This document shows positions 32,577-59,665 of a stretch of DNA of 64,000 nucleotides, in pieces; position 1 is the first letter of the stretch, and each line of letters starts with the position of its first letter. The stretch covers positions 4,943 to 68,942 of the forward strand of contig JAGCTY010000111.1 in NCBI GenBank assembly GCA_017963105.1, written 5' to 3'. The position numbers and the translations under genes are program-made. The DNA is from Lentisphaeria bacterium (GTDB lineage Bacteria; Verrucomicrobiota; Lentisphaeria; Victivallales; UBA1829). The notes beneath the pieces were generated by a model. It saw nothing but the letters and a program-made list of their open reading frames with translations. It was not told the origin of the DNA and did no database searches.

Positions 32577-32578
32577 CC

Positions 32579-34904: not shown

Positions 34905-35257
34905 AGATGTCGATTTGTGTCGGGATCATGGTTTTGAGCGCATTCCTTGCGGCCTTTGCCCAAATGCTTCTCAAGAAGAGCGCGGATGAGCCGCACGCCA
35001 GCCTTTTAGGCAATTATCTGAACGTGAAAGTCATATCCGGTTATTCGATCTTTTTTCTGACACTGGTCATGAACATTTATGCATATACTTCCGTGCCGTA
35101 TAAATATGGCGCCGTCATCAATGCGTTTTCCTATACCTTTGCATTGATTTTATCCGTTTTCTTTCTCAAGGACAAGATTACCTGGCGGGCCGTATGCGGA
35201 AACCTGCTGATCGTCCTTGGGATCGCCGTTTACTCTTTCGATCATTTCATTCCATGA
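34901..35257 (+). CDS. Small 4-TM DMT/EamA-half membrane protein (ArnE/ArnF-like flippase subunit candidate)
   Basis: 118 aa, four hydrophobic segments, paired with the preceding gene. Confidence 0.65.
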   Translation: MKMSICVGIMVLSAFLAAFAQMLLKKSADEPHASLLGNYLNVKVISGYSIFFLTLVMNIYAYTSVPYKYGAVINAFSYTFALILSVFFLKDKITWRAVCGNLLIVLGIAVYSFDHFIP

Positions 35258-35270
35258 TTAGGAGTTTCTC

Positions 35271-38349: not shown

Positions 38350-38384
38350 TTTTTTCGACAAAAGTTTCAATTTTTTCGACAAAA
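38350..38384 (+). promoter_or_regulatory. Two perfect 14-bp direct repeats spaced 21 bp, upstream of the giant-gene promoter
   Basis: TTTTTTCGACAAAA at 38350-38363 and 38371-38384. Confidence 0.3.
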
Positions 38385-38434
38385 ATCGCCGTTTTTTGAA
38401 ACATCGCATTCGATTCAATATGAACGCATTATGT

Positions 38435-38487: not shown

Positions 38488-38516
38488 TTGACTTTTATAT
38501 TAGATTGTGTTATATT
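38488..38516 (+). promoter_or_regulatory. Strong sigma70-like promoter of the giant-gene operon
   Basis: TTGACT (38488-38493), 17-nt spacer, TATATT (38511-38516), within an AT-rich block about 100 nt upstream of the start codon. Confidence 0.55.
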
Positions 38517-38618: not shown

Positions 38619-41600
38619 ATGGCCGACATTTTCGTGAATCCCAGCTGGAACAGCGGCGCTGACCCCATTACCGTTTATGTCTCCGGAAACAATGTATCCA
38701 AGACAAACCCGGGCGACGGGACTTCCGCATCGTGCTACAAAACTCTCGAAGCTGCTTTTTCCGCGGCCTCGGACGGCGACACCATCTATGTCTACAATAA
38801 GTCGTCGAGTTCCTTTGCACTCATTCCCGCAAACACAAGCCAGGCAGATACGGGAGTCTATAAGCTTTCATCCGGCGAGACGTATTCGTATACCGGGGAT
38901 TCGCGGAAGAATCTGGTGGTGCGGATGAACCGGTATGAGGTGGAAGCCGACAAGAATTATGCCATCCTCGTTTCCGGCAACATTACGATGGATTTCCGGG
39001 TTTACAACTCCATCAAACTCGGCAGAGGAAAAGACGGCCAGCACACATCGCTCACGGTCGAAAACGGCGCGGTTTTCCTGCTCCGCAAGATCAGCCCGTA
39101 CACGGCCCAGTGGAATTCCATCACCACGATCGATCAATTTGTCGTCAACGGAGCTACGGCATGCTTTGTCGGTTCCCAAGTCAAGAACGAGGGCGACAAT
39201 AAAAACACATGCGATGCAACCTTTACCGTTACGAACTCGCTCTTCTTTGCCTCCGGCTTCTTTAACAATTACAGCCACAACAGCGGCGATAAAGCCGACG
39301 CCCTCACGGTATCCGGCTCGAATATGACCGTCGGCTACCTCGCGAATGCCGCAAACGGCACATCCATCACCATCGGCTCCGCATCTACCGTTTACTCCGG
39401 GCAGGTTATCAACACAGGCGAGAAGTCCCTGATTTCGGTGTCGGGCAATTCCAAAATGTTCGCCGGAAAGGTCGAAAACCAGGGGACCACGGCAGGAAAA
39501 GGAATCTCGGTAACCAGCGGCTCGGAGTTCACTGTCGCAGCAGAGACCTGGGATAATACTGGCGAGGGTTCCGGTTCCGGCTATGTCCTGGACATGGTCG
39601 GCCTTCAGGCGGGAGCGGCACGCACGATACAGGTTTATGTCCTGAAAAACGGCGACAGCGAATCGAATAAAAAAACATATGAGCTCACCCTCGCAGCGGA
39701 CCAGACGACCGCCAAACTGCGGGCGTCCTATCTGGTAACGGGAGCGACCTATTCCGTCTGGACGAGCGAAGATTCCGACAGGGTCTCGTATCTTTCCCGG
39801 GTATTCGGCGACGGCAGCGTTTCGAATGCCGGCAGGATCACGGTTGACAGCTCGACGTTCAACGCGGGCTCGCTCACCAACAGCTCGTCCGTTTCCGTCG
39901 CATCCTTCACCGATTCCACCGTTCAGGTCAGCGGGACCGTCTCGAACTCCGGCAAAACTGCGAATAGCGGCGGCATGACCATTGAGGATTCCATGTTCGA
40001 GGCCGGGACCTGGGCGGACGTTGTTTTCACCGGAAGCTCCGTCTCGAACTCCGGCACGATCACGGTCACGGCAACAGCCGCTGACAAGCTCGCGTCGTTC
40101 CGCGCGGGCGCGGTGACGAACTCCGGCACGCTCACGGTTTCTTCCACGGAGGATTCCACCTCCGTTTCGACGTTCAACGCGACCTCGCTCACCAACAGCT
40201 CGACCGTTTCCGTCGCATCCTTCACCAATTCCACGGTTCAGGTCAGCGGGACCGTCTCGAACTCCGGCAAAACCGCGAATAGCGGCGGCATGACCATCGA
40301 GGATTCCATGTTCGAGGTCGGAACCTGGGCGGACGACGTTTTCACCGGAAGCGCCGTCTCGAACTCCGGCACACTCTCGGTTTCCGGCTCCGAACTTCGC
40401 GCGGGCGCGATGACGAACTCCGGCTCCATGACCGTCGACAACTCGACGTTCAACGAGGTCTCGCTCAACAACAGTTCGTCCGTTTCTTACGCGGCCTTTA
40501 CCGATTCCGTTGTCTCGTTCAGCGGCTCCGTCTCGAACTCCGGCAAAGCCGCAAATAACGGCGGCATGACCATTGAGGATACCTTGTTCGAGGCCGGGAC
40601 CTGGTCGGACGTTGTTTTCACCGGAAGCTCCGTCTCGAACTCCGGCACGCTCACGGTTTCCGACTCCGTTCTTCGCGCGGGCGCGGTCACGAACTCCGGC
40701 TCCATGACCGTCGACGGCTCGATGTTCAACGCGGCCTCGTTCAACAACAGCGTGGCGGCCTCCTCCGCCGCCCTTACCGATTCCACGGTTCAGATCAGCG
40801 GAACCCTTTCGAACTCCGGCGCGCTCAACCTCACGGACGTCTCCGCCGTGGTCGGGGAACCCGGCAACAACGCGCAATGCTTCACCAATGCGGCTTCCTC
40901 CACGTTCAGGCTGACTTCGACGTCCGCTCATGACTCCACCCTCGCCGTGAACGGCGCCCTGAAGAATAACGGGACGCTCACGATTTCTTCGTCCCCCCTG
41001 ACGATAGCCGTGGCTTCCGGCGCGGCCCGCACGGTCTCGATCCTGATCAAGGACAGCTCCAACAACACCGTTTACAGCAACAATGCGTTCTCCGTCGCCG
41101 CGAACGTCGACAGCATCTCCATTTCCAGTTCGTATTTCACTCCCGGCGCGACCTACTCCGTATCGATCGACGGCGGCGATCCCGTTCTTTATACCATGGC
41201 CTCCACCACCGCCTCGCTCTCGGTCACGGGCAAGGTCACGAACTCCAACACATCCTCCACCCGCGCCGTCATCACGGTGGACGCGTGGTCCACGTTCTCC
41301 GCGGATTCGTTCACGAACAGCAACGGCCGGTTCAACATCGTCTACAATCCCGACAACGCCGGAGCTCTCAGCATCAACAGCTTCGACAACGCAAGCGGCA
41401 TCATCTCGATCGACGTCACGAAGTATCTCGCCAATCGCGAAACGGATCCGGTCGTCACGGTCGACGGGATCAGGATCTCCGCGTCGAACAAGCTGGGCAC
41501 CGTCAGACTGGTCGATTCCAGCGGAAGCACCGTCAACGGCCTCACCTACTACCTCAACAGCGACAACCAGATCGTCATTGCCCCGACCACCCTGTTCGTG

Positions 41601-44600
41601 AACGCGAAATGGACGGACGACGACTCCACCCTTTCCAAGCCCTATACGATTACGTTGACGACCCCGGATCCCGATGATTCGAGCAAGACCGTCTCCGTGA
41701 AATATGAACGCTATAAGGCAGGGGATATAACCGCAGGAGACCCCCCGTACTATGCCTGGAAGTATGGCTCCGATATCGTCTATACCACAGAGGAACCCGA
41801 GAACGGCACCTACGACACCACGGGAACGATTCCCGCCGTCTATGAAAAGGTCGATTCCAGTTTCGTCGTCATAGACAACGTCTCCAAAATGGTGGTCGTG
41901 TTAGACACGTCCGCTTCATTCAACGGCCGGAGCTACAAGCTGGAAAGAGGCGTCAACGCGTTCGCCAACGTGCAGGAAGCGATCGAACATGCCATGCCCG
42001 GGGCCACGATCGTCTTCTACAACATCGGCGACACGAAGGACGTCGAGGACTTCAAGTTCTACAAGCAGGGGCTCGTCACCGTTGACAAGAACCTGATCTT
42101 CGAATCGAACGTGAAGGACAAGGCGGTCAAGCTCGATACGCTCAAGATCGACGAAGCCTGCGAAGCCACGTTCAAAACGGGGCTCTACTCGATGGAAGAC
42201 GCCCTGGACAACGCCGGCACCCTGGACATCGTCTCCGGCACCCGTTTCAACGCCGACCTGGTCAAGAACTCCGGCAAGGGCGTTATTCTCGTCGGGACCG
42301 CCGCCCGCCTCGTGGCCGCCTCCATCGACTCCGGCACCGTCGAGATCCGGACCGGATACGAGGACGTCGACCTCAATTGGCTGGAATGGCCCATGTCCGC
42401 GAAGATCGGCGACAACACAACCCTGAAATTCGTCTATCCCGTTACGGAATACTCCCCCGCGGAACAGGAGGGCGTCGCGTATGAGTACAGGCTCATCGAC
42501 GGCATCCGGAAGCTCGCCGTGGTGGAGACCGTCCGCCCCGGAGGCCGCATCTACATGCAGAAACTCGGCGACGACCAGTATGTCTGCCGCGGCTCCATGG
42601 AGCACGCGTCGGTCGCGGCCGGCGATTGCGATTCCTTCCTCCTCAACACGGAATACGGCGGACTCCTCCTCGTCCGCGACGTGTTCAACCTGTCCGACGC
42701 GGATCTGAACGGCACCTACAGCACCGCGGCAATCTACGTCAACAACACCTGGGCGGGCAACCTCCCCTCCGACACGTTCACGGCGAAAAGCCAGGACATC
42801 ACCTCGAAGCTGACGTTCAGTTTCACCTCCGCGAACCATTCCGCGCGCATGGTGAAAGCTCTTATTTATGATAATAATAACAACATCGTAGAAGAGCATT
42901 TCGTCTCCGTCGGGGACAGCGACACCGGCGAATATGCCGGGGTCGTCGCCCTCTGCACCAATCTCTCCGCAGACAAAACGTATACCGTGAAGGTCATCGA
43001 CGGGGACGCGGCTCCCATCAGCGCGACCGGCGTCGGCGTCACCGCCATCGCGAATCACGAGGTTTCCATTTCCACGGACTATGACGGGAACCAGATCGTC
43101 TACGGGTCCTTCCTCGACGCGATGTCCAGCGCATACATCTTCGGCCATACGATCGGAACGGCCGACGAAGGCATGGTCATCCGCCTGCAGGACAGCTCCG
43201 CCGACCAGTCGGGCACCACCTACATCGAAGGTGTTTTCAAGGGCGGCTCGTATACCGGCCCGGAGAGCAACGTCAGCACATCCGCGATCCCCAAGATCCC
43301 CAACGGCAAATCCTTCTACAACCTGGTCGTCGAACCGGACCGGTACTGGGACGAGACCGCCGGTCAGTGGCGCTACGACAACGTGAGCCTGATCCTGGGC
43401 GGCTCGTTCGGCCAGCAGTACACGTCGAACCTCATCACGTTCCAAAGGCTGAAATACCTGGAAATCAACCAGTTCGTCATCGGCTCGACCGCGAGCAGGA
43501 TGAGCGCCATCGACTTCGTCGACATCGAGGATCTCCGGATCACCACCAAGCTGAAACCGCAGGGCGGCGCCACGATTCGCATCCTGAACTGCAACGTCAC
43601 CAGCGACCAGCATTTCTCCGTGACGGGCGGCACGCTCATCATCGAAAACTCCAACGTCAAGCTCGTCGGGGCGACCGGAAACGGCGCGCTTTCCACGGAG
43701 AACAACTGGGTGGGGTCCGGCACGGTCGTCATCCGCAACTCCGTGTTCACCCTGATCAGCAGCAGCACCGGCGCAAACCCCGTCGTCGTCAACCTGAAGA
43801 TCAATTCCGAATTCGCCATCTCCGGCACATGCACCGTCAACGGCATCTTCACGAACGTCGATGAAGCAGACGGGTCCGACACGTTCATCACATTCCGCGA
43901 CGCGATCCTGGACGAGAATTCGAGCATCCGGGGAGATGAAAACCATGACAACGTCGGCGCATCGCTGCGTTTCGAGGGGTACAACATCCTGGACGGCACC
44001 ACCGTGGAGCAGTACGGCAACAAGTCCATGACCGTGGAGGCCGGCTCGACGGTCGACATGTCCGACGGCGCATTGATCACCGTCGGCGGCGAGGTCGAAG
44101 TCTCGAACTGCGGCAACATCACCCTGGACAACGCCTCCATCTCCGCCGGATCGTTCACGAACGAGGGCAACCTGACCCTGTCGAACGGTTCGGAAGTCCA
44201 GCTCACCGGCGAGTTCACGAACGCCAAGAACGGCACGCTGACCGCCGGGCTCCATTCCGACGGCACGCTCGGGATCACCGGCTCGATCAACAATGAAGGC
44301 ACGGTCTACATCGACCTGAGCCATACCGACCTGCCCGACGGCGAAGACCTGTACATCAATCTTGCGGGCCTCTCCGGCTCGGGCGAAGTGGTCGTCATCG
44401 GCGGCGGCGGAAGCTATGAACCGGAGGAGACGGGAGGCTCAGCACACCCGCCCCGCATCCGCCTGTCCGTCCCGCCGACCAAGACCCTTTATGTAAGCAG
44501 GGAATGGCAGGATGCCGGCGTCTACAGAAAAGGCACGAACGTCGGTTCCTTCACCTATTTCGGATACAACGCCTACGCGGACAACCCGGGCAGCGCGCGC

Positions 44601-47600
44601 GGCCTGGTGTTCAGCAGGGAAACCGCGAAGATCGTCTACTACGGCGGCAACGGCGAAGACGCATTCTGCGACCTGGATCTGTCTGCCGCCGAGAACGCCG
44701 CGAACCAGCTCACGATCACCACGGTCGGCAGCATGGCGTCCACGAAGATGGCGATCGAGTTCGCTTCCGCTCTCGTGGTTGCCCGCGACGCCGATAATGA
44801 CCGTAACATTTCGGTCGTGGTGAAAGAAGGGACCAAGGTCGTCGAAACCAAGAGCCTGTTCATCGCGAAACAGAACGGAAATAACGGGACCACGGCGACG
44901 TTCACCGACATCGATTTCTACTCCGCCAACCTGTCCGCGGATGGCGAATATACCGTCACCGTCGTCGACGGAAACACCACGCTCTACGAACTTGAGTCGT
45001 CGGAATGGTCGGTGACCGGACTTGCCGCCGACCGCGACACGGCGTCCATGGGCGCCCTGACCGTCGGCGAATCGCAGACCGTGACGCTCTTCGGCGCGAC
45101 CATGAGCCTGCATGACAGAACGGCCGCCCCCGCGACGGCTTCCATCACGAACAACGGCACGCTGAAGGTCGGCACCGGGGAAGACGCGGTCCTGGAAATC
45201 CCCGTGGCGCCGTCCGACGCCATGCGCAACGTGAGCGTGAAGATTCAGATCGGAGCGAACGAGGAATACCACACGGTCCAGGCGGCGAAGGGCGCCACCT
45301 CGATCACCGTGGAATCCAACTCGATCTCGCCCGGCCAGCAGTACACGGTTTCGGTCACGGACACCAAACAGATCTCCGCGTCGCACGACGCCGGCACGGG
45401 CCATACCGTGCTGAAGGTGGGCATCCTGAAAGGCAACGGCAACCACGAAAGCACGCGCAGCATCAATGTGACGGCCCAGAACGCGGCGGGCGCAAAATAC
45501 ACCTTCACGAACGTCCAGGTGGCGGGCGACGCCACCGAAGTCGAACTGGATCCCCTCGTGGCCCTCGACAATACGAGCGGCACGGTAACCGGCACGGTCG
45601 CGGAACAGTTCTCGGTCTCGGTCGACGGGAACGGCAACTTCATCCTGACCGCAAAAGGAGAGCATGCTGAACAGAGAGTCAGCGCCTATGTCCAGAAGAC
45701 CGTCGGCGACACGGTGTACCGCTTCGACTACACCTTCGACGTGGCGGCGGGCAGTGCTGCCGGCGAGGTCGGCAGAGTTTCCACGCGCCTCACCACCGAG
45801 GGATATTACTACGTCAAGTCCGAAGAGCCGGCCGTGACCGTGACCGCCACGGTCACCGACAGCTGCATTTCCGGCTCCGTCGTCAAGGCTGAAAGCGTCA
45901 CGAACGACGGAAAACTCATCGTCGCATCGCAGGAGGATTTCGGCAGCCTTTCCCTCACCGGAATCCAGTCGGCGGAGGCCCGCACGGTCCAGGTCACGGT
46001 CAAGGACGGCACATACACCGTCGGGACCTACGACGTCAAGGTCGGCGGCAACTCCACGACCGCCTCCGTCATCTCCACCGATTTCTTCGCCGGAAAGAAC
46101 TACACCGCGAAGGTCACGGACACGTATTACACAGCCGGGTCCGTGTCGGGCAGCGACACGGCGCCGCAGCTGAAGTTCGCATTGGGCGATGTTACCGCCC
46201 CCAGCGTCTTGGTCCAGGTCGCGGACAGCGCCTCCGGCGACCTCGTTGGGACCTACACCGCCACGAGAATCACCGAAGCGGGCGATGATTACGGCAAATA
46301 CACCATCGTCTCCGGCGAATTCGCCGCCGAGACGAGATATACCATATCTTATTACAATACCGTCAAATCGCAGGAAACCCTGGTCGCCAGAACCGAATGC
46401 GTATCGTCGGCCAGTGGTGTTTCGGCTCCGCGTCTGGCGTTTGCGGTCGAAGCGGGCGCCGAACGCACGATCACGGCCGTGGTCAAGGACGGCTCCGGCA
46501 ACATCGTCGGCACGTTCGACGTCATCGTCCACGATTCCGCTGAAACCTGCTACCTCGTATCCAGCGAATTCACCGATACGGCGGCGGATGCCTACACCGT
46601 TTCCATCGCGGGCGAGAACACCTATGACCTGACCGGTTCGTTTACTGCGGCAGCCGAGGATTCGAGAAAGGCCGCGAAACTGGTCCTCGACGTGGACGTG
46701 AACACGGAGGCTTCCCGCTGGATCGAGGTCACGACGAAACCGACGCTGGCCCTGATGACCGGCCTGAACCCCGGACAGTACGGTTATACCATTACCACCG
46801 ACTCCGGCACGGTCGCCGGGACCTGCATCGTCGATTCCGAAGGCAAGACCATCATCAAATCCGATGCGCTGACCGCCGGGACGGAGTATACCGCGACATT
46901 CGATGATGCGGGCTCCACGACCAAAACCGCCGCCGCGGTCGACAAGTATTCGATCTTCGTCGAAAAGGGCGCGCCGACAGCCGAGCTCACGTCCGAGGAT
47001 TTCATGGTCGGAATGGACTATTCCGACGTGACGATCAAGGACGCCTACACCGCCACGGGGGAAGCGGCGGCCGGCACCCTCACGCTGAAGGGACTGACCT
47101 CCTCCGACAAAGTCATCCGTCCCGACGGCGTCCTGCAGCGCACCGTGACCGTCACGGTCATGGACGGCGCATTCAAGGTCGGAACCTATACCATCGAGGA
47201 TTCCGCCATCATCGGCGGCAAGGCGGTCATTTCGGACAGCAAGTTCACGGCGGACACGGATTATACCCTGCTGGTCGAGGACACAAGGACGGTCGTAGTC
47301 ACCGCGGAAACGCTCACCGAGTTCGACGCCGGGGCCGTCACGAACAATGACACCATCACCGTCATCGACGCGACGTTCCATGCGGCGTCGCTCACGAACA
47401 ACGGCACGATCTCGCTCACGAACGCCCTGCTCACGGTCGGAACGACCGACGGAAGCGGCAACTTCATCGGCGGCACGATCACGAACAGCGCCGGCAAGAC
47501 GATCACGCTCGACATGAACTCGCTGATCACCGCCGGGAGCATTGCGAACTCCGGCACGATCACGATCGACGCGAGATTGTTCGATCCCTCGACGACCGAC

Positions 47601-50600
47601 ATGAAGAAGGTCATCGACCTGGATACCGGCGCGGCAGCCGTCTCCGGGCTTGTCCTCGATGTGACGGGGAACTCCCATGCAAGCGATATCGGCATCCTGT
47701 ACGACTCCGTCGAGTACGACTACTGGGTCCTCGCGGCCAGCCAGACCACGGTGTACGTGAACAGCGCCTGGGCGACGGACGCGGAGACCGGCCTCGCGCA
47801 CAAGACCGGCGACAGCGTCGGCGACAAACTGTACTACGGGTTCAACGCGTTCGCCAGCTTCTCCGAGGCATACGCGGAGACCCTGAAAGCCAATCCGTAC
47901 TCCATCAAGAAAGCCGGAGCCTCTTCCGCGGACCAGCAGAAGATCGCGACGATCGTGGTCTGCGACACGCCCGAAACGGCCCAACCGGTCGAGATGACGC
48001 CTGAGAATTTCCGAAACAAAATCACCCTGGACGACCTTCAGATCGCCAAGTCGGATACCAGCGCCACCGCCATCATCCCGTTCACGAACGCCGAAGGCAG
48101 CGTCCTCACTCTCATCCCCGCGGACGATGCGGCCAAGACCATTACGGTCCAGAGCGGCGTGACCCTGCAGATGAACGGCACGGGTTCCCTGCACCTGGGC
48201 GGCGATGAAACCACGGACCCGGCTGCGACTACGACAACGGCCGGCAAAATCGTGATCAACGGCGGGATCGAATCCGAAGAGGGCTCCGTCGTGGTCTACG
48301 GACTGACCGAGGTCGTCGGCGGAACCCTGAAGGCGGCTTCTCTCACGGTCAATGCCGCCGACAAGCTCACGGTCACCGGCTTCAGCACGCTCGACATCGG
48401 CGGCACGGGCGACGGCAGTTATGCCATCCGTCTGCTGGACGGCACGACGCTGAACAACTCCAGCGTGGCGGGCGGTGCGATCAATTCCGACTATAACTTC
48501 ACGATCTCCGGCGAAAGCGCGCTGACCGGCGGCGTGGCCGTCACGGCGACGAACAATACCATTACGAACACAGGTTCGCTCACGGTGGACTGGCGTTCCC
48601 GGATCACGTCCGCGAGATTCGACAACAATACGACCGAGGCCGCCACTATCACCGTGGACGCCAGAGAATTCGACAGTTCCGCCGACAACGTCGTCAACGG
48701 CCTTGCGACCGTGATCGACGTGAACAGCAAGGACGGCAGTCTGACTCTGGGCAACAACAAGATCGCCCTTCTCAAGGAAGAAGATTCCGATGTGAGACTG
48801 GTCCAGAAGCTGAACGGCGACATCTGCGTCGGCATCATCGACCAGAGCACGCTGTATGTGAACAATGACTGGACGACCTACGCGGACGGCGAAGAGATCG
48901 TTGGCAATGAGGGCAAGTTCTACGGCATCAACGCGTTCGCGAACATCGCGGATTCCAGGCTGACCTGGTCCGGGGATTCCACCGAACAGGATGTCAAGCC
49001 CGACTGCGTCACGACCAATACGATCGTCTTCGACGGCGACACCTACACGATCGGTTCCAAGACGTATTTCTACTCCGACAACAAGGCGGAAGGCGTCCTC
49101 ATCCGCGGCGCGAACGAGGACGGCACGGCGACGAACGTCGTGCTCTCGGGCGATCGTCTCTACCTGACCCACGCGGTGACCGACTACACCGATGAAGGAC
49201 TCGCGGCGGAAGTCGGCAGCGAGGGGAACACCCCGCTCTACACGATCCATAAGGACCTTACGCTGAACGTTTCGCGCCTGAACGTCGGCAACGCGAAGGA
49301 CACGAGCGAGACGAACCGCACGGGCGGCGTTGCGAACCTGGCGATCAGCGGCACGCTGAAAGGCACCCTCTACGTCGCGCCGTATTCGACGGTGACGGTG
49401 AACAAGAGCGGCAACGTGGACGTGCTCGACGGCAAAGAAGCCTGGCTCCAGCTCCGGCCGAACGCCGTTCTGACGGTCAACGGCTCGGACGGCGAAGGCG
49501 CCAGAGGGTTCGATGATGACGAATACCAGTTCCGCCAGGATGCGCTGAACTTCATCGACGGCGGCACGGTGAACCTGAACAACACCAAAGCCCATCTCGA
49601 ATACATCCGCCTAGATTCCGTCGGAAGCGATCAGCCGCTCACCGTCCAGAACGATGTCTTCAATGTGACGGATTCGGAACTCGTCTTCGGCAATGTGAAT
49701 CTCACTGCCGCCACGCCCGGCGTCGTGTTCGGTTCGCTTGACCACTCCAACACCATGACCGTCACCCTGACGCGTTCCACGGTGACGGCCGCATCGAAGG
49801 ACTTCAATCCGCTGGCCGGCGTAACCGTGAATGTCAGGAACTCCACGATCAGCGCGGCCTCCGTGACGAACTCCGGCACGATCACGGTCGATGTCACGTC
49901 CCGCATCACGGCGGACAGCGTTTCCGGCGGCGTGATCGACATCATATCGACCGGACTCGGGACTACCCTGACGGCCGACTTCTACATCCTGGTCAAGGGT
50001 ACGCTTGACAGCACGAGTCTCCCGACCCTGATCGTCGACGGCGATATCGATGACCCGGTTACCGACGGGTCTGCAATCGGCTCGACCGGCTATCAGGTCC
50101 GTACGCTCGGCAACACGGGCGTGTTCCTGACCAAGGTGAAAGATCCCGTGGAAATGTTCGTGGACAGCTCGTATACCGGCAGCCTCGGAGACGAGACCGA
50201 AGACCATCATCTGATCGGGTTCGACGCGTTCACGGACAACCCCGACACCACGGACGACACGACCCTGTCCTTCACGAGCGACGCGGCGACGGCGATCACC
50301 TACGCCGCGGGCGATTATTCCGCGCTGGACCTCGGCGGCCTGAGCGTCGCCCCGACCGATCTCACGATCTCGACGTCCGGCGACGTCACCATGGGTCCGC
50401 TGACCGTCGGAAACGGCAGCACGGTCGATCAGGCCGTCACGTTCTCCGGCGCGAATGTGGCGCTGGAGGATGCGGGGACCGAGCCTGACACAACCGCCTC
50501 CATCACGGTGTCCGACGGCAGCACGCTGAACATCGGCGGGCCGGATCCCGCCGCCGCCGGCAACGCTGCCGCGGTCACGGCCGAAACGGTCAACAATGCC

Positions 50601-53600
50601 GGCACGATCGTGGTCGCATCCGATTCCTCGTTCGAAACCGACGATGTGACGAACACCGGTTCGATCACAGTGAACAATACGATGACGAGCGGCACGATCA
50701 CGAATACCGACGGCACGATCACGGTCGACGGCACGCTCGAAGCCGCCAGTATTTCGGGCGGCGCGGTTTCGGTCTCGAACAGCCTGGACGTCAGCGGAGA
50801 AATCTCCGGCGTTTCGCTCACGGTGACCGCACCCGGCGCGACGGATCCCGACGATGTCGCGGTGAAGGCCGGAACCATCAACGGCGGTTCGATCAAACTG
50901 ACGGTCACCACTTCCACCCTTACCGAGACTTCGTACCAGTTCGTCGATGCCACGCTTGGAACCGGGACGGACGCGGTTTCGTTCACGGTGAACGGCACAC
51001 CCATCACGCAGGAATTCCAGGACGTCGGGAACGGCTATCTGTTCACGACAAAAGGCAACACCGGCGCATGGCTGGTGCAGGCGCAGTCCCGGGCGGCCCT
51101 GTATGTGAACTCGACGTATACCGCGGATGGCTACAATGAAGGCCACATCTACGGCTACAACGCGTTCTCTTCGTTCGTGGATGCGCTGACCGTGGCATCC
51201 GACCTGACGATCAACAATGCGAGTTTCGCCGACGGCATCACGATCGAAGTCGAAAACAATATCACGCATGATGTGATCCCCGCCGGGGAAGGATCCCTGA
51301 ATCTCGTGTTCCAGGGTGTTATCACGGTCAATGGCTCGGGCAAGACCGTGACCGTTTACGGCGACCGCTATCTCAGGCTGGGCGCGGCAACGGATACGAC
51401 ATCCTTTGTCTTCAATCCCGATTTCGTATTCAATTACGAACAGATCGGGGACGTGAACACGGGCAAATACGGTCTTCTTCTCGGGACGAGCCCGGCGAAC
51501 TCCCTCGGCTCCGTCACGATGAACGGCACGTTCACGAGCGGAAACCGCTTCCAGGCCATTACCGACTCCCTCGAGCTGAATAAGGCCGTAACGGCTGACA
51601 CGTACGTCTATCTGGGCTCCACGGATATGGTGATTGCTGCTCCCGTCGAATCCCAGACCATTACGTTCGTCGGCTACGCCATTGTGAACAGCGACGCGAC
51701 GCTGACGACCCCGGATGACGGCAATATCCTTATCTACGATCCCGCTGCAGATGTGTTGATCCGAGGCACCGGCAACAGCCTGTATGAGACCATCCCCCAG
51801 GTAAAGACCGGATCACTGGTCCTCACGGATGGGGCGCTTGTGACAGAGGATACGCGGATCAAACTGAAGTCCAATCTTACGTTCTGCGACGACTACGACC
51901 GGTTCACGGAAGATGGAGTCGATTACACCGGACAGGTCACTCTGACCGCTGATAACACCTTCTGGGACATTGGAGGAGACATCAATGTCAGATTCTTCAC
52001 GGATCCGAGCCACATTGATGACGATGTATCCGCCACGCTGAGCTTTGCGCAAAGCATCGTGGAAGTCGGCGGAAACGTGATCAACGCTGCGTACAGCACG
52101 ACGACGGGACAGGATTCGGCTGCGTATCTCGGCACCGCCCCTGCGATGACGATCGAGCTGGTCGACTCCTCTATGTTTGTCGACGGCGACCTGATGAACG
52201 ACGGCGAGATCACGCTGACAAAAGACAGTTCGTCTTTCAACGCCATCAGCGTCGCCGGAAATGTACTGAACCGTGAAGGTGCGACCATTTCCGTTGCTGC
52301 TTCGTCTTTCGATGTCAACGGCGAGACCAGTGTTCTCACGAACAACGGCACGTTCAACGTTTCCGGCAGGTCCACGCTGACCATCAACGAGCTCGGCGGC
52401 AGCAACCCCATAGAGCTTCTGAACGACGCGGCAATCGTGGATTCCGCCATCGCCAGCGGCGGCAAGCTGAACGTGGCATCAGGAAGCGTTGATTTCGCCA
52501 ATTCGACCATGTCGTCCACCGCGCTCGACAACGCCGGTTCGATCAAGTTCTACAATACGGTGACTGTCGGCGCGATCGACAACAAGACCGCGGCCGCATC
52601 CATCACGGTTAACGGTACGCTGAACTCTGGCGCAATCACCAATTCCGGCGTGACCGACAGCGACGGCGGCATCACGGTGAATGGCAAGCTGTCTGCCACC
52701 GGGGACATCGACAACGCCGGCACGATCACGGTCTACGGCACACTGACCGGCGGCTCGATCAACAATGGCGGCACGATCGAACTCGGTACGGTCGGCGACA
52801 GGAAAGCTGCTCTTACCGTGACCGGCGCGATCGACAACACGTCCGGCACGATCAACATCAACAATGTGGCGCTGCTCGGCGAGGCGACGTCCGTCATCAG
52901 GGCGGCCAGCATCAACAACGCGTCCGGCACGATCACGATCGATGCGACGGGCTTTGGCGGCGGCACACGGAAAGTGATCGACGTCAACAGCAGCACGGAA
53001 CTTGACGTGAACGACATCACGTTGAATCACGCGGGCACGGGCGTCCGCCTGGTCCAGGCGGATGACGGGGATGTCTTCATCACGGATGAAACCCAGTCGA
53101 CCCTGTTCGTGAACAGCACCTATTCCGGCCAGGTGACGGACGACGGCCATCTGATGGGATGGAACGCGTTCAGCAGCTTCATCGAGGCTCTCACGGTCGC
53201 AAAAGGCAGATCCGACGATACGACGATTACTGTTCTCTCCGACATTACGGACAGTTCCGATGTCCAGTATCTGTTCGGATCAGGTCGCTTCCCCGGCAAT
53301 GTCACGATCGATGGCGTACTGGTCGTCGATGAGGATAATCCGAGCGGAAGGAAGCCCATCGTCACGCTTGGCGGGTCTTTGCTGGAATTCGATCCGACCC
53401 CGGCTGACAACAAAACATTTACCTTCTCCGCCGGCAGCTCCGACACGGTTGGCGTAGATTTCCGGATGACGAACGGCTCGTTCTGGCCGAATGAACATCC
53501 TGAAACCGATGATCTGGCCGAATATGTGATCTCCAGCGACATCTCCGCTCCTGACATCGTGTTCAAAAAAGGCTCAACGAGCGTGACTGCGACCGGGACG

Positions 53601-55781
53601 CTGACGGCGACCGGAGTGCCGGAGACTTCGGACCTCGGCAATATCACTTTCTACAAGACAGGTCTGGACTTCTCCATCGATGGCGAGGACGGCGGTTTCT
53701 CTGTTTCCGATCCGCAGGTCAATGCCGGAGGAAGCATCATCTTCCGTCAGGGAGACGTCGATTTCAACAACACCTTCGTTTCTGCAAAGTATCTTGCCGT
53801 TACCGATGACAATGCCGGTGATTCTTTTGCCGGCAGCGTGAATCTGACTTCCGACAAAACCACCTGGACGATTTCCGATGATGTGTTCGTCAGATTCTAC
53901 ACTCCCTTTACTGCGGCCAAGTTCGGTGAAGGCGGCTATGCCGCAAACTTCACTTTCACCAACCACAGCAGCCTGAACGTCGGCGGAAATCTGATCAACA
54001 TCGCATACACGACCAATGATGGAACAACCAGCATCGATGTATTTGCCGGGGCTCCGGCTATGACGATCGACCTGGTCAACTCCACCATGACCGTCGGGAC
54101 GTACAGCGAAGGGAATCTTGTCCGCGGCGGCGCGATCGAAAACGCCGGCACGATCAAGATGGACAAGGATTCGCTGATCACGGCAGGCAGCATCACGAAC
54201 AGCGGCGCGGGCACGATCACGATCGACGCGACGGGATTCTCCGGCATGAAGAAAGTCATCGACCTGGAAAGCGGAACGGTCGCGGCCTCGCTCATCAACG
54301 CCCCGTCCGGCGTGACGCTGTACTACAATAAGGCGGAACACGATTACTGGCTCACGGACGCCGTGAACAGCATCATCTACCTGAACGGCACAAGCGCCTG
54401 GAACAACAAGCAATACGGCGATGCGCTCGGCACCTATGGGACCACGAACGAATACTTCGGCTACAATGCGACCAACTCGTCCGAAGCCGCAAGAAACATC
54501 GCGGCCGCCGCGGGCACCACGATCGAGGTGACCGGCGGGGAATTCACCGCTGCAAATTCGCCGGCGTTCAACGGCGTCACGACGACCATCAAAGACGGAA
54601 CCTTCAAGACCAACGTCTGCGGCGGGAAGAATTACTCCACCGGAGACGGCGTGGTCCGTCTTGAAGTCGAAGAAGGCGAAGAAAAGCCCACGCTTTCGCT
54701 GACCATCGACGGCGGGAAGTTCGAAAAGATCGTCTTCGGCGGAGACCGCGTGAACACCGCAAAGGATGTGACCAGGGTCGCCGACATCGAGATGACCATC
54801 TCCGGCGGAAAGTTCTATCATTCCGTGGCCGGCGCCATGGCGCTCACCAATGCATCGGGATTCGCCAAACTGGAAGGCAATGTCACCCTGAATATCTACG
54901 GCGGGGAGTTCAACGACAATGCCGCGGGCCAGAACGTAGACTGGCTCTACGGCGGATGCATCGCGAGCACCAAATCCGTCGGACAGAGCACCAGCATCAC
55001 GGGAAATGTCACGGTCAGGATCAACACCTCGGAAAAGAACGATCACATCGAGATCGCGAATCTGGTCGTCGGGTCGTACGGATACGGAGAAGTCGGAGGC
55101 GACACCAAACTTCTCCTGACCGGAACGGAAAAGAATGTTACCGCAACCGGCGAGATCTGGGGCGGATGCAGCAGCGACAAATACGAAGGATATATCTCCG
55201 ACAGCCACAACCGCAACCTGACCACGACCGTCAGGCACAAAGTGTCCGAGCCGGGAGAAGAGCCTGTGTATGAATACGGAAAACGCATCCTCTCCTTCAC
55301 CGGGTTCACGGGGACGCTCACATCCCAGGAGAACAAGATTCTGGCGTTCAGCGACGTCGTGGTCGAGCAGAACAGCCAGGCGACGGTGGCAAACTTCGAG
55401 GGCGGCAAAGTCAGCCTTTCCGACGTGGTGACCTGGACCTTCGAAAACGGCAGCACGCTGACCGGAAATTTCAGCAACGACTTCTGGGGCGACACGCTGA
55501 ACCTGAAGGGATTCACCTCGGCGGTAACGGACCTCGAGCTGATGTTCGATGCCAACAGCACCGATTCGATCGATGTCTTCAGATACTTCGACAAGCTGGC
55601 GGACGTCCAGATGAACGGCAATTCCGTGTCAGCCACGTTCAGCCAGGACGTCGAGGCACAGACGATGACATGGGCATGGAATGCCGGCTCGACCACCGGC
55701 GACACGCCGGAATCCTGGCTCGGCGGTTCGCTTACGGTCAACAAGGGGACCGGAATCATGTCGGTCACGACGATCGCGTAA
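38619..55781 (+). CDS. Giant leaderless beta-helix repeat protein (5720 aa), a concatemer of about 9 homologous super-modules
   Basis: ATG 38619 with AAGGAG 7 nt upstream, in frame in track ORF 38580..55781 and uninterrupted. Ser/Thr/Gly/Asn-rich beta-helix-like repeats. Recurring module headers and tails (see findings). No N-terminal hydrophobic signal. Confidence 0.85.
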   Translation: MADIFVNPSWNSGADPITVYVSGNNVSKTNPGDGTSASCYKTLEAAFSAASDGDTIYVYNKSSSSFALIPANTSQADTGVYKLSSGETYSYTGDSRKNLVVRMNRYEVEADKNYAILVSGNITMDFRVYNSIKLGRGKDGQHTSLTVENGAVFLLRKISPYTAQWNSITTIDQFVVNGATACFVGSQVKNEGDNKNTCDATFTVTNSLFFASGFFNNYSHNSGDKADALTVSGSNMTVGYLANAANGTSITIGSASTVYSGQVINTGEKSLISVSGNSKMFAGKVENQGTTAGKGISVTSGSEFTVAAETWDNTGEGSGSGYVLDMVGLQAGAARTIQVYVLKNGDSESNKKTYELTLAADQTTAKLRASYLVTGATYSVWTSEDSDRVSYLSRVFGDGSVSNAGRITVDSSTFNAGSLTNSSSVSVASFTDSTVQVSGTVSNSGKTANSGGMTIEDSMFEAGTWADVVFTGSSVSNSGTITVTATAADKLASFRAGAVTNSGTLTVSSTEDSTSVSTFNATSLTNSSTVSVASFTNSTVQVSGTVSNSGKTANSGGMTIEDSMFEVGTWADDVFTGSAVSNSGTLSVSGSELRAGAMTNSGSMTVDNSTFNEVSLNNSSSVSYAAFTDSVVSFSGSVSNSGKAANNGGMTIEDTLFEAGTWSDVVFTGSSVSNSGTLTVSDSVLRAGAVTNSGSMTVDGSMFNAASFNNSVAASSAALTDSTVQISGTLSNSGALNLTDVSAVVGEPGNNAQCFTNAASSTFRLTSTSAHDSTLAVNGALKNNGTLTISSSPLTIAVASGAARTVSILIKDSSNNTVYSNNAFSVAANVDSISISSSYFTPGATYSVSIDGGDPVLYTMASTTASLSVTGKVTNSNTSSTRAVITVDAWSTFSADSFTNSNGRFNIVYNPDNAGALSINSFDNASGIISIDVTKYLANRETDPVVTVDGIRISASNKLGTVRLVDSSGSTVNGLTYYLNSDNQIVIAPTTLFVNAKWTDDDSTLSKPYTITLTTPDPDDSSKTVSVKYERYKAGDITAGDPPYYAWKYGSDIVYTTEEPENGTYDTTGTIPAVYEKVDSSFVVIDNVSKMVVVLDTSASFNGRSYKLERGVNAFANVQEAIEHAMPGATIVFYNIGDTKDVEDFKFYKQGLVTVDKNLIFESNVKDKAVKLDTLKIDEACEATFKTGLYSMEDALDNAGTLDIVSGTRFNADLVKNSGKGVILVGTAARLVAASIDSGTVEIRTGYEDVDLNWLEWPMSAKIGDNTTLKFVYPVTEYSPAEQEGVAYEYRLIDGIRKLAVVETVRPGGRIYMQKLGDDQYVCRGSMEHASVAAGDCDSFLLNTEYGGLLLVRDVFNLSDADLNGTYSTAAIYVNNTWAGNLPSDTFTAKSQDITSKLTFSFTSANHSARMVKALIYDNNNNIVEEHFVSVGDSDTGEYAGVVALCTNLSADKTYTVKVIDGDAAPISATGVGVTAIANHEVSISTDYDGNQIVYGSFLDAMSSAYIFGHTIGTADEGMVIRLQDSSADQSGTTYIEGVFKGGSYTGPESNVSTSAIPKIPNGKSFYNLVVEPDRYWDETAGQWRYDNVSLILGGSFGQQYTSNLITFQRLKYLEINQFVIGSTASRMSAIDFVDIEDLRITTKLKPQGGATIRILNCNVTSDQHFSVTGGTLIIENSNVKLVGATGNGALSTENNWVGSGTVVIRNSVFTLISSSTGANPVVVNLKINSEFAISGTCTVNGIFTNVDEADGSDTFITFRDAILDENSSIRGDENHDNVGASLRFEGYNILDGTTVEQYGNKSMTVEAGSTVDMSDGALITVGGEVEVSNCGNITLDNASISAGSFTNEGNLTLSNGSEVQLTGEFTNAKNGTLTAGLHSDGTLGITGSINNEGTVYIDLSHTDLPDGEDLYINLAGLSGSGEVVVIGGGGSYEPEETGGSAHPPRIRLSVPPTKTLYVSREWQDAGVYRKGTNVGSFTYFGYNAYADNPGSARGLVFSRETAKIVYYGGNGEDAFCDLDLSAAENAANQLTITTVGSMASTKMAIEFASALVVARDADNDRNISVVVKEGTKVVETKSLFIAKQNGNNGTTATFTDIDFYSANLSADGEYTVTVVDGNTTLYELESSEWSVTGLAADRDTASMGALTVGESQTVTLFGATMSLHDRTAAPATASITNNGTLKVGTGEDAVLEIPVAPSDAMRNVSVKIQIGANEEYHTVQAAKGATSITVESNSISPGQQYTVSVTDTKQISASHDAGTGHTVLKVGILKGNGNHESTRSINVTAQNAAGAKYTFTNVQVAGDATEVELDPLVALDNTSGTVTGTVAEQFSVSVDGNGNFILTAKGEHAEQRVSAYVQKTVGDTVYRFDYTFDVAAGSAAGEVGRVSTRLTTEGYYYVKSEEPAVTVTATVTDSCISGSVVKAESVTNDGKLIVASQEDFGSLSLTGIQSAEARTVQVTVKDGTYTVGTYDVKVGGNSTTASVISTDFFAGKNYTAKVTDTYYTAGSVSGSDTAPQLKFALGDVTAPSVLVQVADSASGDLVGTYTATRITEAGDDYGKYTIVSGEFAAETRYTISYYNTVKSQETLVARTECVSSASGVSAPRLAFAVEAGAERTITAVVKDGSGNIVGTFDVIVHDSAETCYLVSSEFTDTAADAYTVSIAGENTYDLTGSFTAAAEDSRKAAKLVLDVDVNTEASRWIEVTTKPTLALMTGLNPGQYGYTITTDSGTVAGTCIVDSEGKTIIKSDALTAGTEYTATFDDAGSTTKTAAAVDKYSIFVEKGAPTAELTSEDFMVGMDYSDVTIKDAYTATGEAAAGTLTLKGLTSSDKVIRPDGVLQRTVTVTVMDGAFKVGTYTIEDSAIIGGKAVISDSKFTADTDYTLLVEDTRTVVVTAETLTEFDAGAVTNNDTITVIDATFHAASLTNNGTISLTNALLTVGTTDGSGNFIGGTITNSAGKTITLDMNSLITAGSIANSGTITIDARLFDPSTTDMKKVIDLDTGAAAVSGLVLDVTGNSHASDIGILYDSVEYDYWVLAASQTTVYVNSAWATDAETGLAHKTGDSVGDKLYYGFNAFASFSEAYAETLKANPYSIKKAGASSADQQKIATIVVCDTPETAQPVEMTPENFRNKITLDDLQIAKSDTSATAIIPFTNAEGSVLTLIPADDAAKTITVQSGVTLQMNGTGSLHLGGDETTDPAATTTTAGKIVINGGIESEEGSVVVYGLTEVVGGTLKAASLTVNAADKLTVTGFSTLDIGGTGDGSYAIRLLDGTTLNNSSVAGGAINSDYNFTISGESALTGGVAVTATNNTITNTGSLTVDWRSRITSARFDNNTTEAATITVDAREFDSSADNVVNGLATVIDVNSKDGSLTLGNNKIALLKEEDSDVRLVQKLNGDICVGIIDQSTLYVNNDWTTYADGEEIVGNEGKFYGINAFANIADSRLTWSGDSTEQDVKPDCVTTNTIVFDGDTYTIGSKTYFYSDNKAEGVLIRGANEDGTATNVVLSGDRLYLTHAVTDYTDEGLAAEVGSEGNTPLYTIHKDLTLNVSRLNVGNAKDTSETNRTGGVANLAISGTLKGTLYVAPYSTVTVNKSGNVDVLDGKEAWLQLRPNAVLTVNGSDGEGARGFDDDEYQFRQDALNFIDGGTVNLNNTKAHLEYIRLDSVGSDQPLTVQNDVFNVTDSELVFGNVNLTAATPGVVFGSLDHSNTMTVTLTRSTVTAASKDFNPLAGVTVNVRNSTISAASVTNSGTITVDVTSRITADSVSGGVIDIISTGLGTTLTADFYILVKGTLDSTSLPTLIVDGDIDDPVTDGSAIGSTGYQVRTLGNTGVFLTKVKDPVEMFVDSSYTGSLGDETEDHHLIGFDAFTDNPDTTDDTTLSFTSDAATAITYAAGDYSALDLGGLSVAPTDLTISTSGDVTMGPLTVGNGSTVDQAVTFSGANVALEDAGTEPDTTASITVSDGSTLNIGGPDPAAAGNAAAVTAETVNNAGTIVVASDSSFETDDVTNTGSITVNNTMTSGTITNTDGTITVDGTLEAASISGGAVSVSNSLDVSGEISGVSLTVTAPGATDPDDVAVKAGTINGGSIKLTVTTSTLTETSYQFVDATLGTGTDAVSFTVNGTPITQEFQDVGNGYLFTTKGNTGAWLVQAQSRAALYVNSTYTADGYNEGHIYGYNAFSSFVDALTVASDLTINNASFADGITIEVENNITHDVIPAGEGSLNLVFQGVITVNGSGKTVTVYGDRYLRLGAATDTTSFVFNPDFVFNYEQIGDVNTGKYGLLLGTSPANSLGSVTMNGTFTSGNRFQAITDSLELNKAVTADTYVYLGSTDMVIAAPVESQTITFVGYAIVNSDATLTTPDDGNILIYDPAADVLIRGTGNSLYETIPQVKTGSLVLTDGALVTEDTRIKLKSNLTFCDDYDRFTEDGVDYTGQVTLTADNTFWDIGGDINVRFFTDPSHIDDDVSATLSFAQSIVEVGGNVINAAYSTTTGQDSAAYLGTAPAMTIELVDSSMFVDGDLMNDGEITLTKDSSSFNAISVAGNVLNREGATISVAASSFDVNGETSVLTNNGTFNVSGRSTLTINELGGSNPIELLNDAAIVDSAIASGGKLNVASGSVDFANSTMSSTALDNAGSIKFYNTVTVGAIDNKTAAASITVNGTLNSGAITNSGVTDSDGGITVNGKLSATGDIDNAGTITVYGTLTGGSINNGGTIELGTVGDRKAALTVTGAIDNTSGTININNVALLGEATSVIRAASINNASGTITIDATGFGGGTRKVIDVNSSTELDVNDITLNHAGTGVRLVQADDGDVFITDETQSTLFVNSTYSGQVTDDGHLMGWNAFSSFIEALTVAKGRSDDTTITVLSDITDSSDVQYLFGSGRFPGNVTIDGVLVVDEDNPSGRKPIVTLGGSLLEFDPTPADNKTFTFSAGSSDTVGVDFRMTNGSFWPNEHPETDDLAEYVISSDISAPDIVFKKGSTSVTATGTLTATGVPETSDLGNITFYKTGLDFSIDGEDGGFSVSDPQVNAGGSIIFRQGDVDFNNTFVSAKYLAVTDDNAGDSFAGSVNLTSDKTTWTISDDVFVRFYTPFTAAKFGEGGYAANFTFTNHSSLNVGGNLINIAYTTNDGTTSIDVFAGAPAMTIDLVNSTMTVGTYSEGNLVRGGAIENAGTIKMDKDSLITAGSITNSGAGTITIDATGFSGMKKVIDLESGTVAASLINAPSGVTLYYNKAEHDYWLTDAVNSIIYLNGTSAWNNKQYGDALGTYGTTNEYFGYNATNSSEAARNIAAAAGTTIEVTGGEFTAANSPAFNGVTTTIKDGTFKTNVCGGKNYSTGDGVVRLEVEEGEEKPTLSLTIDGGKFEKIVFGGDRVNTAKDVTRVADIEMTISGGKFYHSVAGAMALTNASGFAKLEGNVTLNIYGGEFNDNAAGQNVDWLYGGCIASTKSVGQSTSITGNVTVRINTSEKNDHIEIANLVVGSYGYGEVGGDTKLLLTGTEKNVTATGEIWGGCSSDKYEGYISDSHNRNLTTTVRHKVSEPGEEPVYEYGKRILSFTGFTGTLTSQENKILAFSDVVVEQNSQATVANFEGGKVSLSDVVTWTFENGSTLTGNFSNDFWGDTLNLKGFTSAVTDLELMFDANSTDSIDVFRYFDKLADVQMNGNSVSATFSQDVEAQTMTWAWNAGSTTGDTPESWLGGSLTVNKGTGIMSVTTIA
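39838..40860. repeat. Intragenic near-identical tandem repeats (315/276/276-bp units, about 3.5 copies)
   Basis: (a/c)(c/t)gttcaacg at about 39855, 40170, 40446 and 40722. Encodes STFNA(G/T)SLTNSS.VSVASFT.STVQVSGTVSNSGKTANSGGMTIEDSMFE.GTWAD units. Confidence 0.8.
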
Positions 55782-55813: not shown

Positions 55814-55960
55814 ATGACTCTGAAGAAAACGAAAGACCGCGAGGCCTATGAAGCACCTGTCATAACGGACATCGCCCCCGTTGCCGTAACGACGGGAGCG
55901 GGGGATTCCCAAACTCCCAGTGATGGAGGAGATATCAGCGAAACCGGAGGTTTCGACTGA
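55814..55960 (+). CDS. Unannotated 48-codon ORF; candidate RiPP (lasso-type) precursor peptide
   Basis: Hand-translated: MTLKKTKDREAYEAPVITDIAPVAVTTGAGDSQTPSDGGDISETGGFD. AAGGA lies 9 nt upstream of the ATG. The ORF is 33 nt after the giant-gene stop, on the same strand as a downstream PqqD-type gene. Confidence 0.45.
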   Translation: MTLKKTKDREAYEAPVITDIAPVAVTTGAGDSQTPSDGGDISETGGFD

Positions 55961-59408: not shown

Positions 59409-59665
59409 AACTGAATCCATTTGCCGTAATGGCGGAACAATTCGACGGGACGGGCCTGGTGTTCAACCCGGAATCGAACGCGGCGGTCTCACTGAACAAG
59501 ACCGGGGTGTATCTGTGGAACCGGCTGAAAGACGGCGCGACCGAGGCGGAAATGGCGGCGGGCCTGCTGAAAACGTACGACGGAGTGACGGAAGAAAAGG
59601 CCGCCGCGGACGTGAAGGCGTTCATCGAAGAACTGCGAAGCCGTTCCCTGCTGTCGGAGGACTGA
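59405..59665 (+). CDS. PqqD-family protein (RiPP recognition element-type)
   Basis: 86 aa; VFNPESNAAVSLNKTGVYLWNRLKDGATEAEMAAGLLKTYDGVTEEKAAADVKAFIEELRSRSLL. ATGA overlap with the preceding gene. Confidence 0.8.
   Translation: MKLNPFAVMAEQFDGTGLVFNPESNAAVSLNKTGVYLWNRLKDGATEAEMAAGLLKTYDGVTEEKAAADVKAFIEELRSRSLLSED

Follow-up and report, generated by a model that had tools for sequence, protein, structure and literature searches.

What is a bacterial gene of 17.2 kb built from, and what might its product do? The question is raised by one reading frame on a 64,000-nucleotide (nt) stretch of Lentisphaeria bacterium DNA (contig JAGCTY010000111.1), which we call the window and from whose first letter all positions are counted unless a relative is named. 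An earlier note on this DNA read the encoded protein as a concatemer of about nine complete homologous modules, created by fusion of tandem paralogous genes. Sequence comparison leads us to a different description, in which the giant protein is best regarded as nine segments bounded by a conserved junction rather than nine homologous copies.

38619..55781, + strand: giant gene, 5,720 amino acids (aa), one terminal stop

The frame is open from 38580 to 55781 (+), and an AAGGAG sequence stands 7 nt ahead of the ATG at 38619. A search for exact matches to the protein of the upstream DegT gene placed the locus in several metagenome samples. Among the contigs recovered, three, each from a different sample (ERZ28653958, ERZ27256979 and ERZ28653423), extend into the giant gene, and all three give it a length of 5,720 aa. 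The uninterrupted 17.2-kb frame of 5,720 codons that had been reported is thus seen at the same length in three independent assemblies. Over their overlap with the window, the three contigs are 99.94%, 99.96% and 100% identical, with differences amounting to a few single-nucleotide polymorphisms, and at least two of the three therefore represent independent populations. Mis-assembly is unlikely because the sole tandem DNA repeat in the gene is a 276-nt unit present in 2.4 copies (82%; TRF, 40167..40820). The 17-kb giant gene is real.

All nine module headers listed in the earlier note are located where it placed them (aa 1, 991, 1956, 3043, 3411, 3845, 4161, 4828 and 5252), and GVNAFANVQEAI, expected near nt 41950 in the second module, starts at nt 41949. 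The module sizes (316-1,087 aa) also agree. A strict regular expression for the header matches seven times, compared with a mean of 0.017 (maximum 1) in 1,000 shuffles, and a strict tail expression matches three times versus none in the shuffles. The suggestion that every header is preceded by a tail holds only in part: a clear tail of the TITIDA..KKVIDL..VRLVQ type stands before five or six of the eight internal headers, and the sequence before the rest is divergent.

Given that BLAST of the whole protein against itself returned only the identity match, 200-aa chunks were compared with the whole protein by BLASTP. Module-scale self-similarity is present by this approach, and the matches are centred on the transitions from tail to header (aa 2906-3077 with 5129-5284 at 39% identity; 4433-4564 with 5067-5207; 1828-1987 with 2907-3079). 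The recurring element is a junction of about 110 aa, composed of the tail GTITIDAxGF..KKVIDL..VRLVQ..DGDVxITD followed by the header STLYVNSxW..YGxNAF..AL. The eight junctions are located as follows.

41367..41699, + strand: junction 1, aa 917-1027
44262..44606, + strand: junction 2, aa 1882-1996
47520..47879, + strand: junction 3, aa 2968-3087
48627..48971, + strand: junction 4, aa 3337-3451
49983..50267, + strand: junction 5, aa 3789-3883
50898..51212, + strand: junction 6, aa 4094-4198
52890..53210, + strand: junction 7, aa 4758-4864
54171..54509, + strand: junction 8, aa 5185-5297

These eight score 72-115 bits on a junction profile, yet all eight form its training set. Relatives outside that set score 28-84 bits. 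The profile (a hidden Markov model) finds four junctions in the non-training orthologue on L006 (E 1e-16, 3e-27, 3e-11 and 5e-10) and one in a non-training 761-aa relative from locus L005 (E 6e-20). Over 110 internal junctions the consensus reads ..DGDVyLtD...ST-LYVNSxW. Sixteen family proteins start with the header directly after the initiating methionine, and their N-terminal M-A-T-I-Y-V-N-S-x-W (MATIYVNSxW) is paralleled by the internal S-T-L-Y-V-N-S-x-W, including the preceding threonine.

The stretches that begin at successive headers, which we term M1 to M9, differ considerably in content.

38619..41588, + strand: M1, aa 1-990; header MADIFVNPSW..CYKTLEAAFSAASDGDTIYVYN, solenoid, two immunoglobulin (Ig)-like units (aa 297-386 and 780-865), 98-aa repeats and tail
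39804..41018, + strand: 98-aa tandem repeats within M1, about four copies (aa 396-800), 62-68% identity
41589..44483, + strand: M2, aa 991-1955; TLFVN strand, insertion of about 110 aa before GVNAFANVQEAI, Ig-like unit at aa 1386-1475, beta-helix at aa ~1517-1955
44484..47744, + strand: M3, aa 1956-3042; header, about nine Ig-like repeats of ~85 aa (aa 2026-2898, nt 44694..47312), solenoid tail
47745..48848, + strand: M4, aa 3043-3410; single module of beta-helix type
48849..50150, + strand: M5, aa 3411-3844; single module, whose core matches the relatives P0110 and P0112 and no other core here
50151..51098, + strand: M6, aa 3845-4160; shortest module
51099..53099, + strand: M7, aa 4161-4827; beta-helix module related to M8
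53100..54371, + strand: M8, aa 4828-5251; right-handed parallel beta-helix in an AlphaFold model
54372..55778, + strand: M9, aa 5252-5720; header and conserved C-terminal domain ending ..MSVTTIA

M1 has two copies of the Ig-like repeat (about 85 aa, ..ARTVxVxVKDG..VGTY..), M2 has one and M3 about nine. An all-against-all phmmer comparison of the nine segments gave strong links only between M7 and M8 (1e-29), M3 and M8 (1e-14), and M9 and the C-terminal half of the downstream neighbour described below (1e-116). Core profiles were compared with hhalign after each segment had been trimmed by 60 aa at the header end and 80 aa at the tail end. A probability of at least 90% was reached only by C7-C8 (98%), C6-C7 (96%) and C3-C6 (94%, over 49 columns); C1-C3 and C4-C7 come to about 90%, most pairs fall below 30%, and the cores of M5 and M9 match no other core in the giant protein. 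An iterated profile of the family of tail-M8-header segments aligns to the second half of M2, the end of M3 and partly to M4 to M7, and we therefore recognize a loose common solenoid theme. The proposal of nine complete homologous modules cannot be sustained, given that most cores lack detectable homology once the junctions are removed, that M3 is mostly an array of Ig-like repeats, and that M9 is a distinct domain. Its companion, that the protein is not a simple short-repeat adhesin, is borne out, since the units of the chain are large and self-contained.

No Pfam or NCBIfam family, including the Beta_helix models, scores above threshold anywhere in the 5,720 aa, and PDB sequence searches found no relative of the module profile or of the C-terminal domain. 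An AlphaFold2 model was built for the M7 tail plus M8 (aa 4750-5260, nt 52866..54398) from an alignment of 23 family segments. It has a mean predicted local distance difference test score (pLDDT) of 84 and a predicted TM-score (pTM) of 0.84, and is all-beta with short regular strands. Junction 7 (pLDDT 83-91) appears in it as five short strands, the header strand, a loop and the capping alpha-helix SSFIEALTVA, after which short strands continue without interruption. All 50 of the 50 best Foldseek matches of the M8 model in the PDB are right-handed parallel beta-helix proteins, among them Hap, IgA1 protease, polygalacturonases, the HK620 and CBA120 tailspikes, pertactin, Ag43, IcsA and EtpA. 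On the strength of these uniform matches and of the strand pattern, M8 is modelled as a right-handed parallel beta-helix with a pectin-lyase-like fold. Each of M4 to M8 is a single beta-helix unit, and several sequence types occur among them. In this fold the N-terminus is usually capped by a strand plus a helix (xIYVs..F.TIQ.AL..A..GDTI.v..GtY). Headers that resemble this cap are clearest in M1 (CYKTLEAAFSAASDGDTIYVYN), M2 and the 805-aa neighbour (EEAFATVQAALEMDPTGLVIEAGTY).

A search of 1.84 billion (1.84e9) representative proteins with the junction profile returned 58 matching clusters. Members are mostly 2,000-4,300 aa long and carry one to six junctions at an independent E-value of 1e-3 or less on re-scan (the search lists up to eight matched stretches), and all named members are hypothetical proteins of Lentisphaeria metagenome-assembled genomes (MAGs). 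A search that requires a word index, with E-values scaled to 5.8e9 sequences, gave no matches for the M8 or junction alignment. Sixteen further members contain no Pfam domains except an occasional FG-GAP, PKD or Ig domain, which are typically extracellular. The giant protein itself carries both the header at its N-terminus (MADIFVNPSW) and the M9-type C-terminal end (..MSVTTIA). The junction defines a rare, unannotated and Lentisphaeria-restricted family of giant proteins. The gene family is new; giant beta-helix surface proteins as a kind are familiar, giant modular beta-helix adhesins are well known, and no concept is overturned. The junction linker lets proteins of two to six thousand residues be parsed into modules, which should aid the annotation of other ‘dark’ giant genes, and the family belongs to the Lentisphaeria of rumen and gut, which have hardly been studied by experiment.

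M9 matches the C-termini of 14 family proteins, and where an M9-type domain is found in relatives it is always C-terminal. The domain ends in a hydrophobic strand followed by (I/L)A-COOH, and many family members terminate in ..LTIA, ..LTLA or ..KLA. A model of M9 is good from residue 120 on (pTM 0.78, pLDDT 70-95) and all-beta; Foldseek found no PDB match for it below E 0.4. Four proteins with an M9-type domain and no detected junction are present in rumen Victivallales/Lentisphaeria MAGs. We also note two junction-family relatives that end in FG-GAP instead of this domain. Within the window, an M9-type domain is also encoded by a gene that follows downstream.

56059..58476, + strand: 805-aa neighbour; N-terminal half an AIDA/TibA/Ag43-like solenoid, C-terminal half (nt 57094..58473) of M9 type, ending ..MTLTTIA

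This protein is annotated as a Lentisphaeria MAG hypothetical protein. Homology to M9 covers its C-terminal 460 aa (E 1e-116, 55% identity) and takes in the header DLYLRG..AFATVQAAL, and a PDB sequence search matches its N-terminal half to TibA, AIDA-I and Ag43 (E 1e-28 to 1e-13). It had been credited with the same header and tail logic as the giant protein. The header is indeed M9-homologous, but a family-type tail is lacking (junction profile E 0.15, not significant).

Module content differs among relatives. M1 to M4 are collinear with P0107, P0108, P0111 and L006, and the best relatives of M5, M6, M7 and M8 each lie in other proteins, at other positions and in other orders. Four junctions in L006 stand against seven in the window. 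At the orthologous locus L016, which shares the ApbA/TGT flank of the window, the gene encodes 2,760 aa and has another set of modules, and a separate 805-aa gene is missing. Variation in module number, which had been put forward as a check, is therefore observed between orthologous loci (L006 and L016), and it extends to module type. With modules exchanged, gained and lost among relatives, the gene behaves as a modular cassette array.

How such a chain arose bears on the fusion proposal, in which read-through joined some nine paralogues lying in tandem, all of them complete and homologous to one another. The equivalence of the internal header to the N-terminus of family proteins, down to the threonine before it, speaks for such an origin, and the differing module numbers at orthologous loci and the last module held in common with a stand-alone neighbour are also consistent with it. 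Against this, the cores are mostly not homologous to one another, the internal modules lack the C-terminal domain present in every complete family protein and hence are not ‘complete’ proteins, and single-module genes in tandem were seen at none of the 10 related loci inspected. We consider this origin unlikely; recombination or duplication inside such giant genes may have produced the chain instead.

With regard to function, the reading we favour, at a probability of roughly 0.6, is that the frame encodes one very long, non-enzymatic fibre protein of an uncultured rumen or gut Lentisphaeria bacterium, with beta-helix segments chained by junctions, acting as a Sec-independent surface fibre or adhesin. 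The eight junctions would connect rigid right-handed beta-helix segments, which fall into several sequence types and some of which carry Ig-like domains. At each junction the last rungs of one helix would pass into short strands (KKVIDL / VRLVQ / DVFIT), after which the next helix would begin with its first strand, TLYVN, and its capping alpha-helix, ..NAFxSFxEAL... No signal peptide was detected, the N-terminus MADIFVNPSWNSGADP being not hydrophobic, and there is no transmembrane (TM) segment, the maximum 19-residue hydropathy (KD19) over the whole protein being 1.39. The protein is acidic (666 D+E versus 318 K+R) and rich in T, S, G and N. Together these features make Sec-independent export that depends on the C-terminal domain the most likely route, after which the protein would serve as a surface fibre or adhesin, either displayed or released. 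An extracellular fibre or adhesin role is considered most likely by analogy to beta-helix adhesins, and from the extracellular-type domains of relatives and the AIDA-like neighbour. Surface location, export and adhesive function are inferred on these grounds, and any adhesive ligand is purely conjectural. A candidate route would be type I-like export through the adjacent ATP-binding cassette (ABC) exporter.

36475..38211, + strand: ABC exporter of 578 aa (6-TM domain and ATPase), immediately upstream of the giant gene
38488..38516, + strand: candidate sigma-70-like promoter, TTGACT-17-TATATT with TG (consensus match only; AT-rich 400-nt gap upstream)

Several observations weigh against this reading. 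The exporter scores equally well as an MsbA-like and as a type I secretion-like protein and adjoins an Arn-like sugar cluster, and no membrane fusion protein (MFP)/HlyD or TolC family was found among the window ORFs scanned, several of which have no Pfam match of any kind. The Foldseek E-values of M8 are not significant (best 0.011). Furthermore, the alignment behind the model consists of family segments picked by jackhmmer, which is prone to drift on solenoids. As separate observations, a 79-aa fragment that is 84% identical to the C-terminal end of the window exporter lies upstream of a related locus (L005 3091..3390); it looks like a gene remnant, and the exporter is therefore not conserved there. 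Also, in the AT-rich gap about 100 nt before the sigma-70-like match, a 21-nt direct repeat TTTTTTCGACAAAAATCGCAA (2.3 copies, 38350..38397) may serve as a regulator binding site.

The protein could instead be an array of polysaccharide-degrading beta-helix enzymes (glycoside hydrolase (GH) 28-like or polysaccharide lyase (PL)-like) for rumen fibre digestion. Polygalacturonases give the highest Foldseek probabilities (best 0.93, with a TM-score of 0.45 on the target), tailspike depolymerases are also among the matches, and the organism lives in rumen or gut. We judge this quite improbable: no GH, PL or Beta_helix match from Pfam or NCBIfam occurs in the 5,720 aa, the module profile has no sequence relative in the PDB, the Foldseek E-values exceed 0.01, and adhesin beta-helices score equally well.

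The giant gene is followed by a small ORF, and its 805-aa neighbour by three further genes, and these recur among relatives.

55814..55960, + strand: conserved 48-aa ORF, MTLKKTKDREAYEAPVITDIAPVAVTTGAGDSQTPSDGGDISETGGFD, with a ribosome-binding site in front
58515..59408, + strand: ScmC-like, HPr-kinase-related P-loop protein
59405..59665, + strand: PqqD/ScmD-like peptide chaperone
59672..60253, + strand: S24/S26-like peptidase (GDSM..VHRIV, no TM segment)

The ScmC-like and ScmD-like proteins score 48.8 bits (cut-off 125) and 49.6 bits (cut-off 100), respectively. The ScmC gene follows a junction-family gene, directly or after a short C-domain gene, in all seven loci that have downstream DNA (the window, L006, L009, L014, L016, L017 and L005, whose surrounding genes vary), and is accompanied by PqqD in six; it is absent beside five junction-less C-domain proteins of about 720 aa. 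At L017, three GT2 genes lie within the ScmC-PqqD cassette. In eight loci, the gene with the M9-type domain is immediately followed by a conserved ORF of 41-59 aa, which has the motif (K/R)E.YE.P.(V/I).DI.P(V)..G(D/E)S (..YEAPxIxDIxPV..GDS..), followed by an acidic and glycine-rich tail. Besides the window, its positions are as follows.

L006 9766..9894: small ORF
L005 9688..9831: small ORF
L016 8349..8474: small ORF
L014 18908..19054: small ORF
L017 13222..13386: small ORF
L009 11572..11703: small ORF
L011 11080..11259: small ORF

Judged from its sequence and setting, this ORF is a candidate precursor of a peptide resembling the ribosomally synthesized and post-translationally modified peptides (RiPPs), and a conventional candidate substrate of the ScmC, PqqD and peptidase trio. 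It is tempting to view the giant proteins, the acidic peptide of about 48 aa, ScmC, PqqD and the S24/S26-like peptidase as a dedicated, undescribed maturation or export system of Lentisphaeria, but we regard this as decidedly doubtful. In one scenario, the giant protein would be processed or licensed by the trio, at the extreme through cuts at the junctions that yield single-helix proteins; alternatively, the trio simply makes an unrelated small RiPP. The family as a whole points to a possible Sec-independent display route and to a tightly linked cassette of peptide, kinase-like protein, PqqD and peptidase.

The extreme case amounts to a polyprotein with cleavage immediately ahead of T-L-Y-V-N in each junction, for which the S24/S26-like peptidase is a possible agent, so that single beta-helix proteins, each with a family-type start, are released. 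In its favour, internal S-T-L-Y-V-N-S-x-W resembles the N-terminal M-A-T-I-Y-V-N-S-x-W, the peptidase gene is conserved downstream in four loci (50-79% identity), and positions -1 and -2 often hold small residues. In the model, however, the header strand is packed confidently in one continuous unit with the preceding tail (pTM 0.84), the peptidase lacks a TM segment, and the conserved small peptide beside the PqqD gene offers a more conventional substrate. Cleavage of this kind also has no known precedent, and we hold it to be very improbable. Scarcely credible is an assembly artefact or pseudogene in which a short-read assembler collapsed or joined paralogous genes: the supporting contigs are all short-read metagenome assemblies and one 276-nt tandem repeat is present, but the modules are too divergent in DNA to be mis-joined, only that single array was found, relatives of 2,700-4,300 aa occur on many contigs, and we reject this explanation because three assemblies of different samples, a few polymorphisms apart, concur on 5,720 aa.

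The fibre protein favoured here resembles several known systems and differs from each. Autotransporter passengers (AIDA-I, TibA, Ag43, pertactin and Hap) are likewise right-handed parallel beta-helix rods, adhesins in their case; the N-terminal half of the neighbour matches them by sequence, and Hap, IgA1 protease, pertactin and Ag43 are fold matches of M8. They have one passenger domain, whereas here a specific junction chains several helices, which illustrates one way in which nature strings beta-helix rods together. Type Va autotransporters were rejected, since the protein has neither an N-terminal Sec signal peptide nor a PF03797 C-terminal beta-barrel translocator. Giant repeats-in-toxin (RTX) adhesins such as LapA, MpIBP, SiiE and BapA are also acidic, several thousand residues long and devoid of a signal peptide, with tandem Ig-like repeats, a functionally important C-terminal region and an ABC exporter beside the gene (here an equally MsbA-like one). 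The protein described here differs in having no RTX block, no MFP/TolC gene among the window ORFs scanned, and a body of beta-helix rather than mainly Ig repeats; an RTX block of the type I-secreted kind was rejected on finding one isolated, chance-level nonapeptide match to a regular expression at aa 2009 and no PF00353.

Two-partner secretion (TPS) exoproteins (FHA, EtpA and CdiA) also form very long beta-helical fibres, and EtpA is among the weak fold matches. In contrast, there is no Sec signal here, and this system was rejected given that Pfam detects no PF05860 TPS domain or TpsB partner in the protein or its neighbours, nor is such a partner found in the window. Pectin-lyase-fold enzymes and phage tailspikes share the fold class and the strand-plus-helix logic of the N-terminal cap, but there is no sequence-family match, and the protein is not trimeric as far as can be told. 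Chlamydial and related polymorphic membrane proteins (Pmp) of the PVC bacteria were rejected, with three GGA[ILV] and 17 FxxN motifs in 5,720 aa and no PF02415. The cassette recalls SynChlorMet (ScmC/ScmD) and HprK-related/PqqD cassettes (TIGR04248/04249 and TIGR04352/04353) in its HPr-kinase-like protein, PqqD chaperone and candidate precursor peptide. It differs in lacking radical S-adenosylmethionine (SAM)/SPASM enzymes, in scoring below the curated cut-offs and in being tied to giant beta-helix genes; it was not assigned to SynChlorMet, a type that requires two radical-SAM/SPASM proteins, given that the cassette has no radical-SAM gene.

The remainder of the window holds additional features. 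An Arn-like amino-sugar cluster at 31434..36404 (+) encodes an ATP-grasp protein, an epimerase/dehydratase, a GT2 protein, two small ArnE/F-like membrane proteins and a DegT aminotransferase. Its G+C content is 0.46-0.53 compared with about 0.61 elsewhere, and it may be an acquired glycosylation island. At 1768..4941 (-) lies a gene for a 1,057-aa protein with two P-loop regions of the ATPase type found in type II secretion (T2SS-E) and type IV systems, which is unusually long for that family. Two more large surface-type proteins, with AIDA repeats and C-terminal FG-GAP repeats, are encoded at 7080..10901 (-) and 11..1690 (+).

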